Shown: positions 4,899 to 23,523 of the stretch, one piece after another
Position numbering within the stretch: position 1 is the stretch's first letter
Layout: the number at the start of each line of letters is the position of its first letter
Source: Acidobacteriota bacterium
GTDB taxonomy: Bacteria > Acidobacteriota > Vicinamibacteria > Vicinamibacterales > 2-12-FULL-66-21
DNA length: 26,774 nucleotides
Assembly: GCA_013817065.1 (NCBI GenBank)
Contig: JACDDJ010000001.1
Span: 1-26,774, forward strand
Direction: 5' to 3'
Notes under the pieces: generated by a model
Told to the model about the DNA's origin: nothing
Seen by the model: the letters and a program-made list of their open reading frames with translations, nothing else
Database searches by the model: none
Made by a program: the position numbers and the translations under genes

Positions 4899-5189
4899 TT
4901 ACTCGGCGACGTCTTTTTCGCGCGGCCGCCAGAGGATCAGGACCTTGCCAACCCGATGCACGGCTGCCGCGGCGGTGCGGGCGCAGATCTCGTCGCCGAT
5001 CGCGATCCGGTCCGCCCGGTCGGCAGCATTGACCTTGACCTTGATCAGTTCGTGCGCCGTCAGCGCGCGATCGACTTCGGCGATCAGCGTGTCGGTGATG
5101 CCCGCATTGCCAGCCTGCACCACTGGCTCGAGTGCGTGCGCGCGGGCTTTGAGGTGAGCACGTTCCCGGGCAGTCAATGGCGTGGCCAT
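4899..5189 (-). CDS. yhbY: YhbY family (CRM domain) RNA-binding / ribosome assembly protein
   Basis: 96 aa with LTxRERxHLKARAHALEPVV, ALTAHELIKVK and VGKVLILWR signatures. Confidence 0.93.
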   Translation of the reverse strand: MATPLTARERAHLKARAHALEPVVQAGNAGITDTLIAEVDRALTAHELIKVKVNAADRADRIAIGDEICARTAAAAVHRVGKVLILWRPREKDVAE

Positions 5190-5194
5190 GCGCC

Positions 5195-5223
5195 ATTGTA
5201 GTCTTCGAGGCGCCCGGTATCAT
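5195..5223. promoter_or_regulatory. Back-to-back -10 hexamers for yhbY (TACAAT, - strand, 5195-5200) and selO (TATCAT, + strand, 5218-5223)
   Basis: Each hexamer lies 5-6 nt before its start codon in a 40-nt divergent spacer. Confidence 0.55.
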
Positions 5224-5229
5224 GGAGGC

Positions 5230-6675
5230 ATGCCAGGCTGGCGCCTCGAACATACCTACGCGGACCTTCCCCAACTCTTCTATGCCGACGCCAGGCCGGC
5301 GCCGGTTCGAGCGCCGCGTCTCGTCGCATGCAACAAACAGCTCGCGGTAACGCTCGGCCTGGAGCCGGAGACGCTGGACGGCCCGCAGGGCGCCGAGATC
5401 TTCGCCGGCAACGCCCTGCCCGAGGGCGCCAGACCGATTGCCCAGGCGTACGCCGGCCACCAGTTCGGCGGCTTCACCGCTCTCGGTGACGGCCGCGCCA
5501 TTTTGCTCGGCGAGCAGGTGACGCCGTCAGGGGACCGCTTCGACATCCAGTTGAAAGGGGCAGGGCAGACGCGCTACTCGCGACGCGGGGACGGGCGCGC
5601 CGCGCTCGGGCCGATGCTGCGCGAATACATCATCAGCGAGGCGATGCACGCGCTTGGCATCCCGACCACCCGCAGTCTCGCGGTCGTGATGACCGGCGAG
5701 CCGGTGTATCGCGAGTCGGAGCTCGAAGGCGCCGTCCTCACGAGGGTGGCCTCGAGCCATATTCGGGTAGGCACGATGCAGTGGGCGGCCGCGCACGACG
5801 ATCAGCCGGCACTGCGCGCCCTCGCTGACTACACCCGGGCGCGGCATTATCCGGAACTTGCCGACGCCGCGGAGCCGCACCTCGCCCTGCTCGACGCGAT
5901 CATCGAACGGCAGGCGCGCCTGATCGTCCAGTGGCAGCTGGTCGGCTTCATCCACGGCGTGATGAACACCGACAACATGGCGCTGTCGGGCGAAACCATC
6001 GACTACGGACCCTGCGCGTTCATGGACGCGTACGATCCTGAAACCGTGTTCAGCTCGATCGACCACGGCGGCCGATACGCTTACGGCAATCAGCCGCCAG
6101 TCGCGCAGTGGAACCTCGCGCGCCTCGCGGAAGCGATGTTGCCGCTGCTGAACGCTGATCTCAACCGTGCCGTCGAGCTGGCGACCGCATCACTCGAGCG
6201 GTTTCCGGTACTGTTCGAGAGCGGATGGCTCGCCGGAATGCGCTCCAAGCTCGGGCTGTTCACCGAAGAGCCGGAAGACAAGGCGCTCGTCGACGATCTG
6301 CTCCTCTGGATGGAGCGAACATCCGCCGACTTCACCAACACCTTTCGGAATCTGACGATGGCAGATCGCTCGGAGGATGCGCGGAGGTTAGACGCGCAGT
6401 TCGATGCCTGGCACAGCCGGCTGGACGCGCGGCGCGCACGGCAAACGCAGTCGCGCGCTGAGGCGGAGGCGCTGATGCGAGCCCACAATCCCGCCTTCAT
6501 CCCACGCAATCACAAGGTGGAGGAGGCGCTGCAAGCCGCCAGTGGAAACGACGACTTCACCGTGATGCAGCGGTTGCTGGACGTCCTCGCAACACCCTAC
6601 GATCACGACCGCGACCTGCCGGCTTTCAGCGCGCCGGGCGACTCCAGGACTTACCGCACGTTCTGCGGGACCTGA
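5230..6675 (+). CDS. selO: Protein adenylyltransferase SelO (YdiU/UPF0061 pseudokinase AMPylase)
   Basis: YAGHQFG, LGDGRA, QLKGAGxTxYSRxGDGRA, HGVMNTDN, IDYGP and C-terminal TFCGT. ATG 5230 preceded by GGAGG is preferred over the track start 5182. Confidence 0.95.
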   Translation: MPGWRLEHTYADLPQLFYADARPAPVRAPRLVACNKQLAVTLGLEPETLDGPQGAEIFAGNALPEGARPIAQAYAGHQFGGFTALGDGRAILLGEQVTPSGDRFDIQLKGAGQTRYSRRGDGRAALGPMLREYIISEAMHALGIPTTRSLAVVMTGEPVYRESELEGAVLTRVASSHIRVGTMQWAAAHDDQPALRALADYTRARHYPELADAAEPHLALLDAIIERQARLIVQWQLVGFIHGVMNTDNMALSGETIDYGPCAFMDAYDPETVFSSIDHGGRYAYGNQPPVAQWNLARLAEAMLPLLNADLNRAVELATASLERFPVLFESGWLAGMRSKLGLFTEEPEDKALVDDLLLWMERTSADFTNTFRNLTMADRSEDARRLDAQFDAWHSRLDARRARQTQSRAEAEALMRAHNPAFIPRNHKVEEALQAASGNDDFTVMQRLLDVLATPYDHDRDLPAFSAPGDSRTYRTFCGT

Positions 6676-6686
6676 CAACGCGCCCA

Positions 6687-6710
6687 GGGCGGTTCTCGAA
6701 CCGCCCCTAC
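6687..6710 (-). repeat. GTAG-type REP-like palindrome GTAG-GGGCGGTT-CGAG-AACCGCCC, also a likely bidirectional terminator
   Basis: Perfect 8-bp stem and 4-nt loop preceded by the GTAG tetranucleotide, between convergent selO and DoxX genes. Confidence 0.6.
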
Positions 6711-7189
6711 GACCCGTCGCGCGCAGGCGCGGGATGACGAACGGTGCCACCGAGGACCATCGCGGCAGAGATGATCAGCAGGTTCTTGATGATGTACTGA
6801 CCTTCGATCGTCGGCGCGTACGGAACGTGCCCGGGCTGAAAAGTCACATCGGGCAGAATCGCGAGCGGCAGAAAGGTCCCGACCATCTGCATCGCGAGCA
6901 GCCCGATCGCAATCCGTGATGTCTTTCGAGTCAGGAACGTCAAGCCGATCGCGATTTCCCACCAGCCGATAATCGCGAGCCACGTGTCGGGATCGAAAAA
7001 CGGTATCCAGGCGACGGTTGCCTTCACCAGGGGGCCAGCGGGCGATAGTCCAAGCGGTTTCAGGATCCCGAACCACACGAAAATAATCGCCAGCGACACG
7101 CGCAACGCCGGCACTCCCCAGCGCCGCATGATCGTCGAGATGGTTCGGTCCAGCCGATCGACCTGCTCGGGAACCTCTGGAAGATCCAC
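6707..7189 (-). CDS. DoxX family membrane protein
   Basis: LRVSLAIIFVWFGILK, GWWEIAIGL, GQYIIKNLLII pattern and four hydrophobic segments. TAGACT lies 5 nt before the GTG start. Confidence 0.85.
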   Translation of the reverse strand: MDLPEVPEQVDRLDRTISTIMRRWGVPALRVSLAIIFVWFGILKPLGLSPAGPLVKATVAWIPFFDPDTWLAIIGWWEIAIGLTFLTRKTSRIAIGLLAMQMVGTFLPLAILPDVTFQPGHVPYAPTIEGQYIIKNLLIISAAMVLGGTVRHPAPARDGS

Positions 7190-7238
7190 ACGTCAGTCTA
7201 CCGTGCGCTGGGGGTCGTCCAGTCAGGGCCGCTGTTCC

Positions 7239-7254
7239 CGGCTCGCTTCTTGCG
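7239..7254 (+). promoter_or_regulatory. Sigma54-type -24/-12 element CGGCTCGCTTCTTGCG
   Basis: GG-N10-GC with TT before GC (consensus TGGCACG-N4-TTGCW), 13 nt upstream of a small ORF. Confidence 0.55.
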
Positions 7255-7266
7255 AATCGGGATCGT

Positions 7267-7401
7267 ATGACGAACACGCCCGTACCTCAGCCGCCCGACC
7301 CGAGCCCGATGCCGTCACCGGATCTCACGCCGGATCCGAATCCTCCGCAGCCGCCGTTGCCACTGCCGAAGCCAAATGTGAGGGCCAGAGTGCATCGATG
7401 A
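7267..7401 (+). CDS. Pro-rich microprotein 1 (44 aa): MTNTPVPQPPDPSPMPSPDLTPDPNPPQPPLPLPKPNVRARVHR
   Basis: Manual translation. It fills the DoxX-ybjQ gap, and its TGA directly abuts the convergent ybjQ stop (TGATCA). The N-terminus resembles 21136..21282. Confidence 0.6.
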   Translation: MTNTPVPQPPDPSPMPSPDLTPDPNPPQPPLPLPKPNVRARVHR

Positions 7402-7644
7402 TCAGCACACCACCGCGGTGCCGCTGACTGACACCATCAGCATCCCGTTGTTCTGCCCGAGCACCTCGTAATCGATATCGATGGCGATCACGGCATTGGC
7501 ACCGAGCTCGGTCGCGCGCTCCTGCACCTCCTGCATCGCCACTTCGCGCGCTTCTGCGAGGCCGCGCTCGGAGGTCGCCGAACGGCCGCCGACGATGTCG
7601 CGAACGGTGGCGAAGAGGTCGCGGAACACATTTGCCCCGACCAT
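7402..7644 (-). pseudogene. ybjQ: YbjQ/UPF0145 family protein lacking its N-terminal part
   Basis: [20 protein letters not shown]...ARExAMxE...[14 protein letters not shown]...[11 protein letters not shown]. The family's N-terminal roughly 25 aa and an RBS cannot fit in the 20 nt after the upstream stop. Confidence 0.75.
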
Positions 7645-19314: not shown

Positions 19315-21078
19315 ATGCTGAAGAGATCGATCGGGATCGGAGCGGTGGCCGGGACGCTCGGGTTCACTGTTGCGGCACTCGGTGCGCAGCAGCCGCCCGC
19401 TCAACTCCCATCCGCCAACCTGCAATACGCCGCGTTCAAGACGCGGTTCGCGCCGGACGGCACGTTCAAGCTCGAAGGCATCGGCTGGCCACCCTTCAGC
19501 GGAACCTGGAAGAGCGAGCGCGACGAGGTGACGCTGCTCACGACCGGCGGACCACCCGACACCTGCGCCGCCCCCGCCCGCTACCGTTTTCAGATCGACA
19601 AGACCCGCGTCAAGCTCGCTGTGGTTGCCGATGATTGCGTGCTTCGGCGGATGATCCTCAACGAGAGTACCTGGCTGCCGGAAGGTGAAGCCGCGCCGAT
19701 ACCGGAGCGGCGAATCGTGCGCAGCGGTCCGCCCCGGCCACCAGCGTTGCCGAAGGCCGCGGCCCCGAAAGGCAGCTGGCCGTCGTTTCGCGGGCCTGAC
19801 GCATCGGGCGTCGCCGATGGCCAAAACCTTCCCGACCGATGGGACGTCAAGACCGGCGAGAACATTCTCTGGCGCATACCGATTCCAGGACTCGCGCACT
19901 CCAGTCCGGTCGTGTGGGGCGAGCGTCTCTTCGTGACGTCCGCGATCAGCAGCAAGCCGGGCGCGACCTTCAAGCCCGGTCTCTACGGCGACGGCGATGC
20001 CTCGGACGATTCATCGCCACACAAGTTCATGCTCTACGCGGTCGACAAGCGTACCGGCAAGATTGCGTGGGAGCGCGTTGCCTTCGAGGGGCCACCGCGC
20101 AACAAGCGCCACATCAAGTCCACGTATGCCAGCGCGTCGCCCGCCACGGACGGTCGCGTTGTCGTGGCCTGGTTTGGTTCGCAGGGCGTCCACGCCTACG
20201 ACGTGACCGGCAAACCGCTGTGGCAGGTCGATATCGGCACAGTCGACATGGGCGCCTATGACATCCCGTCCTTCGAGTGGGGTCCCGCGAGTTCGCCGAT
20301 CATCTGGAACGACCTCGTGCTGCTGCAGGTCGACACCCAGACCGACTCGTTCCTGCTCGCGCTGGACGTCGCCACCGGCGAGACGGTGTGGAAGACGGAC
20401 CGCGCTGAGCTTCCTTCGTGGGGAACGCCGACTGTCATCACTACGACTGCCGGCGACGAGCTGGTGACCAACGCATCCAACTACATCCGCGGCTACGATC
20501 CGCGCACCGGCAAGGAGCTGTGGCGGCTTGGCGGCAGCTCGAAGATCAGCGCCCCGACACCCTTCTTCGCGCCGGCGGCCCCTGGTTCGCCGGACGGCCT
20601 CATCATCCTCACCAGTGGACGTCGTCCGGAGCAGCCGATCTTCGCAGTTCGCCCCGGCGCGCGTGGCGACCTCAGTCTTCCGAAGGGCGAGACGAGCAGC
20701 CCCGCGGTCGCGTGGAGCAAGACAGGTCGCGGCGCCTACATGCCGACCCCAATCCTCTACGACTCGATCCTCTATGTGATTGCCAACAACGGTGTGTTCG
20801 ATGCCTACGACCCGAAGACCGGCGCGGAGATCTACCGCCAGCGCGCGGAACCCGTGGGCAGCGGCTTCAGCGCCTCGCCGGTCGCTGCGGATGGACGCAT
20901 CTATCTCTCCAGCGAGGACGGCGACATCATCGTCGTTGCCGCCGGACGCGAGTTCAAACCGATCGCCGTCAACGCGATGGGGGATCTCGTGATGGCGACG
21001 CCGGCCCTGTCTGACGGGGTGATGTACGTGCGGTCGGCATCGAGCCTGACGGCAATTGGCAGGAAGAAAGCGAAGTAA
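19315..21078 (+). CDS. Secreted PQQ-binding-like (BamB-like) beta-propeller protein with an extra N-terminal domain
   Basis: Signal peptide, [45 protein letters not shown] motifs. Confidence 0.9.
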
Positions 21079-21108
21079 GGTGCTGCACGGTGGAGCTATA
21101 CCGGGCGA

Positions 21109-21124
21109 CGGCCCCGGACTTGCG
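21109..21124 (+). promoter_or_regulatory. Sigma54-type -24/-12 element CGGCCCCGGACTTGCG
   Basis: GG-N10-GC with TT before GC, 12 nt upstream of a small ORF. Confidence 0.5.
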
Positions 21125-21135
21125 ATGGTCATGGC

Positions 21136-21282
21136 ATGACCACCAACACGCCCAATCCACAGCCCTCTCCGTCGCAGCCCTCTCCGGCGCAGCCGGCACC
21201 GGCGCAGCCGGCAACTGAGCCCACGCCGGGGCCGCGGCCATCGCAGCCGCCGGTACCCCAGCCGCCGAGCCCGACGGCATAG
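21136..21282 (+). CDS. Pro-rich microprotein 2 (48 aa): MTTNTPNPQPSPSQPSPAQPAPAQPATEPTPGPRPSQPPVPQPPSPTA
   Basis: Manual translation. It fills the PQQ-DUF4159 gap, has an in-frame 15-bp repeat, and shares its N-terminus with 7267..7401. Confidence 0.62.
   Translation: MTTNTPNPQPSPSQPSPAQPAPAQPATEPTPGPRPSQPPVPQPPSPTA
21160..21219 (+). repeat. Four degenerate 15-bp tandem units encoding QPSPS/QPSPA/QPAPA/QPATE
   Basis: cagccctctccgtcg cagccctctccggcg cagccggcaccggcg cagccggcaactgag. Confidence 0.85.
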
Positions 21283-21321
21283 GCTCGCCGCTGTCGAGGT
21301 CGGGCAGTCAGCCGCTGCGAA

Positions 21322-22125
21322 ATGCGGGGGCTGGATCACGTATTCTTCCGGTTAGGAATGGGTACAGGCGCTCGCTCACGCGTCGCGATCGTGATCGCCA
21401 TCACGCTGCTGCTGATCCTGCCGCTCTCTGCTCAACGCCGCGGGCGCTTCGGCGGGTTCGGTTCACTACCCGCCGCGGGAGCGTCGATCCCGTACGACGG
21501 CCAGTTCACCATCGTCCGGCTGTGGTATGGGAACTACGGCGGCTGGTCGTTCGACTACCCCGACATGGAGCAGACCCTCACGCTCATCCTGAACGAGCTG
21601 ACGTTATTGCCGGTGAGAAAGCACGGCAGCAACATCCTGCGCATGGATGATCCGGAGCTGATGCAGTTCCCGATCGCGTATCTGTCGGAGCCGGGCTACT
21701 GGTATCCGACCGAGAGTGAAGCGGAAGGGCTGCGGACGTATCTCGCCAAAGGCGGCTTCCTGATCGTCGATGACTTTCACTTCGAGCAGGAATGGCGCGT
21801 GTTCGAGGCGGCGATGAAGACGGTCCTGCCCGATGCGCGGATCGATCAGCTGCCGCTGCATCACCAGGTGTTCAACGCGTTTTTCTCGATCAAGTCACTG
21901 GACGTGCCGTATCCCGGACGGCTTGGCGAGAGCGGCCTGATGGGGGAGTTCTACGGCATCCACGAAGACAACGACCCGGCGAACCGCCTGATGGTGGTCA
22001 TCAACTACAACATGGATGTCGGCGACTACATGGAGCACTCCGGGCGCGGCTGGTATTCAGCGGCTCCGACGAACGAGGCGTTCAAGTTCGGCGTGAATTA
22101 CTTCATGTATGGTCTGACGCACTAG
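21322..22125 (+). CDS. DUF4159 domain-containing exported protein
   Basis: YDGQFTIVRLWY, WSFDYP, PIAYLSEPGYW, YLAKGGFLIVDDF, RLMVVINYNMDVGDY, AFKFGVNY. The start may be ATG 21358. Confidence 0.85.
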   Translation: MRGLDHVFFRLGMGTGARSRVAIVIAITLLLILPLSAQRRGRFGGFGSLPAAGASIPYDGQFTIVRLWYGNYGGWSFDYPDMEQTLTLILNELTLLPVRKHGSNILRMDDPELMQFPIAYLSEPGYWYPTESEAEGLRTYLAKGGFLIVDDFHFEQEWRVFEAAMKTVLPDARIDQLPLHHQVFNAFFSIKSLDVPYPGRLGESGLMGEFYGIHEDNDPANRLMVVINYNMDVGDYMEHSGRGWYSAAPTNEAFKFGVNYFMYGLTH

Positions 22126-23507: not shown

Positions 23508-23523
23508 TGGCATCACGATTGCT
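23508..23523 (+). promoter_or_regulatory. Strong sigma54 -24/-12 element TGGCATCACGATTGCT
   Basis: Near-consensus TGGCA-N6-TTGCT with exact GG-N10-GC spacing. Confidence 0.75.

Follow-up and report, generated by a model that had tools for sequence, protein, structure and literature searches.

The window analysed here, a 26,774-nt stretch of DNA, is contig C354 of a MAG of an Acidobacteriota bacterium (847 contigs, 64.8% GC). Its nearest reference genome, G004, is an uncultured Acidobacteriota MAG and was the sole match in a scan of genome contigs; we refer to it as the sister MAG. In the window, a micro-ORF which we call B (21136..21282, plus strand) lies between two genes of the same strand that adjoin it on either side. 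Upstream is the gene for a 587-aa PQQ-like beta-propeller protein (19315..21078; Pfam PF13360, PF01011), and downstream that for a DUF4159 protein (21358..22125; PF13709), whose start we moved to the ATG at 21358 since the orthologues begin just ahead of a hydrophobic segment. B would encode 48 aa with 40% proline and a pI of 5.8. Its ATG lies 12 nt past the TTGC of a sigma54-type -24/-12 element (21109..21125, plus strand), the first 16 nt of which, CGGCCCCGGACTTGCG, occupy 21109..21124. The element starts with C at 21109, has GG at 21110-21111 and TTGC at 21120-21123 followed by GA, and thus contains GG-N10-GC (GC at 21122-21123); 11 nt separate the 16-mer from the ATG, and no Shine-Dalgarno-like sequence is found in this spacer. 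Within B, a 15-bp unit is repeated 3.3 times in tandem and in frame (21160..21209, plus strand; TRF score 72, 88% matches), giving QPSPS/QPSPA/QPAPA. A preliminary description of this DNA had reported the element, the 11-nt gap, the 48-aa ORF and the in-frame 15-bp repeat, and both coordinates and letters agree with ours. The resemblance which it had pointed out to a second micro-ORF, A (7267..7401), is also borne out, as A and B have in common a CTTGCGA heptamer and an MT(T)NTPxPQP N-terminus.

Micro-ORF B is carried by an intergenic segment (21079..21357, plus strand) that is missing in the closest relative. In the sister MAG, the stop codon of the PQQ-repeat gene overlaps the ATG of the DUF4159 gene (TAATG), leaving zero spacer; the 279 nt are therefore an insertion in the source lineage. 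When both intergenic segments, that of A and that of B, were compared by blastn with their own genome, no further copy and no repeated or mobile element was found. Neither did we find a homologue of B in 40 relatives, 12 of them of the same genus (only chance proline-rich matches, best E 0.01), or any candidate in a set of 5.8 billion proteins. An Rfam search of the window gave zero matches, and scans for sigma70 promoters and for terminators gave zero sites. The 75 nt between the stop codon of B and the DUF4159 start contain a weak hairpin (21308..21334, plus strand) with no clear U tract and a fold z of -1.27, which is not significant. We also observed that the PQQ gene, B and the DUF4159 gene share one reading frame (window 21076-21360), broken only by TAA (21076) and TAG (21280). 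Stop-codon read-through from the PQQ gene into B and the DUF4159 gene was considered and rejected because no feature supporting it was found, and we regard the shared frame as a coincidence (1 in 9).

Micro-ORF A (plus strand, 44 aa) has a counterpart in the sister MAG, a 40-aa orthologue of 88% identity located 40 nt past selO and 6 nt ahead of a DUF72 gene. It belongs to a family, hereafter family 1, whose core reads TPDPNPPQPPLPLPK, and it is preceded by its own sigma54-type element (7239..7255, plus strand; GG at 7240-7241, TTGC at 7250-7253, then GA) with a 13-nt spacer to the ATG at 7267. Three clusters of this family were found by searching 5.8 billion proteins and nine by searching 1.8 billion, with proteins of 45-66 aa; common to them is P.PEPTPDPNPPQPPLPLPK, and one subgroup has E(D)RTWEP in addition. 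Seven metagenome loci, five of them new to the family, matched an exact degenerate DNA pattern. A tblastn-based metagenome scan confirmed no family-1 locus, probably as a result of low-complexity filtering. Over the 24-codon core, codon differences fall mainly at third positions, for example with 15 synonymous and 3 non-synonymous differences between L070 and L063, and 8 and 0 between L048 and L070. Only the sense frame is open across all family-1 loci, the antisense and shifted frames being closed in many. At the level of sequence, these comparisons demonstrate that A is a real, previously unannotated gene of soil Acidobacteriota, with a reading frame under purifying selection. The dispersed family that had been proposed from the first inspection thus exists as a family, with 12 foreign loci; the source genome holds only two copies of it, A and B, plus one unrelated family of the same layout described below.

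Neither Pfam-A nor NCBIfam gave a match above the curated threshold for A, B, the proteins P0001-P0003 or the second family, and a feature search of the ESM Atlas returned no usable match. The one faint library match was to the proline-rich spacer of TonB (E 0.18). AlphaFold2 run with the family alignment predicted no secondary structure (pTM 0.22), pLDDT reaching 84-90 over the core only. The model fits an extended polyproline peptide without a fold, in keeping with the disordered polyproline microproteins which the preliminary description had suggested and for which the database clusters now provide a proline-rich family. One member departs from the common size: P0001 (L060, 276-506) has 76 aa, with a hydrophobic helix past the core and an ...ARGC terminus, which makes it either a variant anchored in the membrane or the result of fusion to a small ORF downstream.

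The surroundings of the family-1 genes were compared. SelO (5182..6675, plus strand, in the window; Pfam PF02696) is the conserved upstream neighbour in a close subgroup, to which this linkage is confined, and in L048, L069, L070, L071, L072 and L073 its gene ends 30-45 nt upstream of the microprotein gene. Over the whole family the neighbours vary by locus and include SelO/DUF72, DinB_2, DoxX_2, a CarboxypepD_reg protein, a beta-lactamase-like gene and FtsX. Since the neighbours of distant members vary, the gene behaves as a stand-alone unit with a signal of its own. No conserved adjacent modification enzyme or transporter, such as would be expected around a RiPP precursor, was found among the family-1 loci. 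The A locus itself (window 6676-7644) is rearranged relative to the sister MAG: selO and A are separated by an insertion of about 590 nt, in which there may be a weak DUF417-like ORF (6707..7189, minus strand), and the DUF72 gene is absent; the promoter and core of A are nevertheless intact. In the adjacent ybjQ (7402..7644, minus strand), the first ~25 codons are gone and no start codon lies upstream.

This diversity of neighbours bears on whether the ORFs might be regulatory leader peptides, in which pausing at Pro-Pro (dependent on EF-P or prolyl-tRNA) controls the downstream gene, DUF4159 for B and DUF72 for the A type, while the peptide itself has no function. Numerous XPPX motifs would suit such a role, as would the 6 nt between the microprotein stop and the DUF72 gene in the sister MAG and the 75 nt, with a hairpin, between B and the DUF4159 start. 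However, the downstream genes vary or are convergent in the window A locus, L060, L061 and the second family; neither the terminator scans nor folding uncovered the terminator/antiterminator pair of an attenuator; and in the core, residues other than proline have stayed the same through many synonymous changes, namely T, D, N, Q, L and K and, for one subgroup, RTWEP. We consider a leader-peptide role very unlikely.

Upstream of the family-1 genes, the alignment revealed a 17-nt block, yGGnCCgnTyCTTGCGA, located 12-14 nt (mostly 13) ahead of the ATG and kept in 12/12 foreign loci. Information content is high over these 17 nt only and about zero in both flanks, and the sequence of the spacer is free. 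GG-N10-GC is invariant in all 14 sequences (the 12 foreign loci, A and B), with (C/T)TGC 12-14 nt ahead of the ATG; the element of B agrees with the block at 12 of the 15 specified positions. Two gene calls (P0004, P0008) extend over the block. We rejected the possibility that it is coding sequence, as spacers of 12, 13 and 14 nt cannot all keep it in frame with the ORF. The layout resembles that of sigma54 promoters, with the consensus TGGCAC-N5-TTGCW (Barrios et al. 1999, cited after PMC5243855). Agreement with this consensus is 8/12 for B, 9/12 for A and 8-9/12 for the family members, scores which chance often yields in a genome. The likeness lies in the invariant GG and GC doublets 10 nt apart, in TTGC at -12, and in a genome that encodes rpoN (PF04552 match of 219.6 bits on C326) and about 22 full PF00158 activator domains. 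The differences are that the -24 half is GGnCC rather than GGCAC, with CC..TyC conserved beyond the classical consensus, and that the block ends in an invariant GCGA, with G after TTGC in place of the usual A/T. A sigma54-type element, as first proposed for A and B, is thus kept by the family members at a near-leaderless distance, in a genome with rpoN and many activators. With -24/-12 promoter geometry, transcription starts about 12 nt past the GC. On this textbook geometry the family ATG is expected at roughly +1 to +3, so that the message would be leaderless or nearly so. About half of the family-1 spacers contain GGA/GGAG-like runs 4-9 nt ahead of the ATG; read-through transcripts using a ribosome-binding site may therefore coexist with the leaderless form, whereas a strictly leaderless model would have no use for such runs.

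We then turned to the whole genome. The first description had called for a count of GG-N8-TTGC-N10-14-ATG ahead of proline-rich ORFs against shuffled sequence; alone, the loose pattern GG-N8-TTGC is not enriched (2421 observed vs 2603 in Markov simulations). ORF starts of the form M-T(1,2)-N-T-P occur three times genome-wide, about the number expected by chance on a rough estimate of our own. The conjunction of element and proline-rich ORF gave a different answer. Eight of 114,917 ATGs open ORFs of 30-100 aa with at least 35% proline, and three of these eight (A, B and an ORF on contig C556) have GG-N8-TTGC 11-15 nt upstream, against 0.013 expected from a per-ATG rate of 0.0016. The recurrence of the arrangement, which had been put forward as making chance less probable, is far from chance in this conjunction. 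In a second approach we collected the sites that have sigma54 geometry and no more than two mismatches to TGGCAC-N5-TTGCW, 614 in all. Past the TTGC of these sites, ATG occurs 24 times at offset 13 and 20 times at offset 14, the background being 6.8 per offset. No such peak was present with spacers of N3, N4, N6 or N7; it appears at the canonical N5 only. ATG therefore sits 13-14 nt past sites of sigma54 geometry genome-wide. The peak suggests dozens of near-leaderless sigma54 genes, and among the candidates behind it are a prepilin-like gene (C8) and a gene beside an activator (C412). The sigma54-like sites showed no clear enrichment near activator genes.

The third ORF of the conjunction, at 6639-6831 of C556 in the source genome G000 (L076, 2640..2832), defines a second family. 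It encodes 54 aa, acidic and proline-rich, with the pattern MIEQPP...HPVPPPTDPAPPxI, and has an element GGGCAC-N5-TTGCA (10/12 consensus positions) 13 nt ahead of its ATG. Of 24 genomes from the same taxonomic family, 17 carry family 2, and database searches gave 13 clusters of it. Its codons vary at third positions, and profile-profile comparison detected no relation to family 1. GG-N10-GC with TTGCA lies 12-13 nt ahead of the ATG in 9-10 of 12 family-2 loci, and most of the spacers are without a Shine-Dalgarno-like run. The copy in the sister MAG (L078, G004:C5) is without the sigma54-type element, and a long polypyrimidine tract precedes its ATG. We also noted that the conserved C-terminus of family 2 is antisense to the last ~13 codons of a convergent gene (L078-L088, ~1623-1665), which has 460-513 aa and ends in ...GGAGSVGGGTG. 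The wobble positions of the two overlapping frames coincide, so the C-terminal conservation of family 2 could belong to either strand.

These observations help to weigh another reading of the 17-nt block: it could be a site of another kind, for instance an operator bound by a regulator or an element acting in the RNA or in translation. The microprotein genes would then be expressed from longer transcripts covering the gene upstream, SelO or, for B, the PQQ gene, and translated from an ordinary ribosome-binding site. Many family-1 genes do lie 30-45 nt past an upstream gene of the same strand, the terminator scans found no terminator between the two, GGA/GGAG-like runs occur in about half of the spacers, and the invariant GCGA together with the conserved CC..TyC exceeds what the classical consensus requires. 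On the other hand, 14/14 sequences have the invariant GG and GC at precisely the distance seen in sigma54 promoters, the distance to the ATG is fixed at 12-14 nt even though the spacer sequence is free, and in L067, L061 and the window A locus the gene upstream either diverges or lies far away. The unrelated family 2 moreover has the same geometry, with TTGCA and mostly no Shine-Dalgarno-like run, and the genome-wide ATG peak is seen with the canonical N5 only. We judge a site unrelated to sigma54 to be improbable and read the block as a probable sigma54-type promoter.

How B relates to this family was examined with profiles of the family. An nhmmer DNA profile built from the 12 foreign loci only, covering the promoter and 11 codons, was run against the whole genome. 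A was recovered first (E 5.6e-11) and B second (E 0.0055), the third match having an E of 0.97; with a promoter-only DNA profile, B was not recovered. At the protein level, the family HMM with composition correction turned off placed B at rank 2 of 101,548 six-frame segments, and with the HMMER composition correction B gave no match. Shuffles in which prolines were kept fixed reached the protein score of B in 9% of cases (p about 0.09). When the start context of A was aligned to all ATG contexts, B had a z of about 4.6, yet was not the top one. The family N-terminus, MT(x)TP.PQP immediately behind the promoter block, is present in B. In its core region, EPTPGPRPSQPPVPQPP, the prolines, T and Q are kept and D, N, L and K are missing. 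B also keeps an EPTPxPxPxQPPxPxP stretch, the repeat expansion filling the region between this stretch and the N-terminus. Taken at the sequence level, the comparisons demonstrate that the family exists, that its promoter-like block and spacing are conserved and that B fits the family DNA profile. B looks like a diverged, species-specific paralogue of the family-1 microprotein gene and not like the independent second copy that the preliminary description had seen in it.

The divergence between B and A far exceeds that between A and its orthologue in the sister MAG. It therefore implies either fast evolution after duplication or origin from a distant copy, and it fits relaxed constraint or decay. 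This raises the possibility that B is a dead or never-functional by-product, that is, a decayed duplicate, or a partial copy of promoter and first codons fused to a slippage-prone repeat of proline codons, within a recent 279-nt insertion, whose transcription and translation, if any, would have no effect. Besides the divergence itself, such an origin would account for the confinement of B to the source genome next to a sister species without any spacer, for the internal 15-bp repeat expansion, for three antisense frames that are all open, as in GC-rich filler, and for the weak promoter-only match. Against it, the frame of B is intact over its 48 codons with a GC3 of 0.80, the element, spacing, ATG, N-terminus and EPTPxPxPxQPPxP segment are all retained, and chance co-occurrence of the element with a proline-rich ORF is very unlikely. 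We regard a by-product as rather unlikely, though a serious contender. Overall, we think it probable that B, which is specific to one species, is a much diverged copy of a gene conserved in Acidobacteriota, driven by a sigma54-type promoter of its own and giving a polyproline product.

We propose that each family-1 member is a stand-alone gene under its own sigma54-type -24/-12 promoter, which an enhancer-binding activator would turn on. The position of the promoter would place the ATG at about +1 to +3, so that the mRNA would be leaderless or near-leaderless and would be translated in that form. The product would be an extended polyproline-II peptide of about 45-55 aa without a fold, and its near-invariant core would most likely act as a short linear motif for a binding partner protein. 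From the sequence, we infer that B may be expressed in the same way. A more far-reaching version can be put forward only tentatively, and we hold it to be possible but not the likelier case: the lineage would routinely fuse sigma54 promoters to start codons, so that dozens of genes would be transcribed into leaderless mRNAs; two or more unrelated polyproline-II families would be dedicated outputs of this arrangement, serving as motif regulators of conserved partners; and B would be a newborn, diverging member.

Taken separately, sigma54 promoters, leaderless mRNAs and small proteins are all well described. The literature that we searched contained no description of sigma54 promoters yielding leaderless transcripts, nor of these proline-rich microprotein families. 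Known sigma54 promoters precede a normal 5' leader, whereas the family element, as known from sequence, abuts the ATG at 12-14 nt. Leaderless genes have been predicted to make up about 13% of genes in Acidobacteria, in a study that modelled only sigma70-type promoters, and those described have TANNNT boxes of that type about 12 bp ahead of the start (PMC3160421). The genes proposed here share with them an ATG where transcription should begin and, often, the lack of a ribosome-binding site, and differ in a promoter of the -24/-12 rather than the sigma70 type. With the small proteins (<60 aa) of Ribo-seq censuses they have in common their size, the absence of annotation and their nature as stand-alone genes in short intergenic gaps. 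Known bacterial small proteins are mostly hydrophobic membrane helices, whereas the families described here have 30-40% proline, are mostly acidic and contain no helix or signal peptide. An extended PxP-type sequence is shared with proline-rich antimicrobial peptides and with the TonB proline-rich spacer. Oncocin, Bac7 and apidaecin, however, are strongly cationic (PRP motifs) and secreted, and the TonB spacer is part of a large protein, while the microproteins here are acidic or neutral, free-standing and, as judged from their sequences, cytoplasmic. If the findings are confirmed, soil Acidobacteriota would gain two conserved microprotein families, and gene callers and sigma70-based predictors of leaderless genes would turn out to overlook a whole class of starts. 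The rule of a -24/-12 element followed, 13-14 nt later, by ATG would then serve to locate genes under enhancer control in a phylum that is abundant yet poorly represented in culture, and B would offer a rare look at a microprotein gene soon after duplication.

Two further occurrences of sigma54-like sites were noted. In the window, TGGCATCACGATTGCT (23508-23523) is intergenic and has one mismatch to the sigma54 consensus; it had been listed in the preliminary description as a possible sRNA promoter. Elsewhere in the genome, C157 and C173 carry two copies of a gene beginning MPRKPGRPRKD..., each with GGCAAC-N5-CTTGCA 13 nt upstream of the ATG, and this pair may be copies of a repeat or of a mobile element in which the promoter is laid out in the same way.
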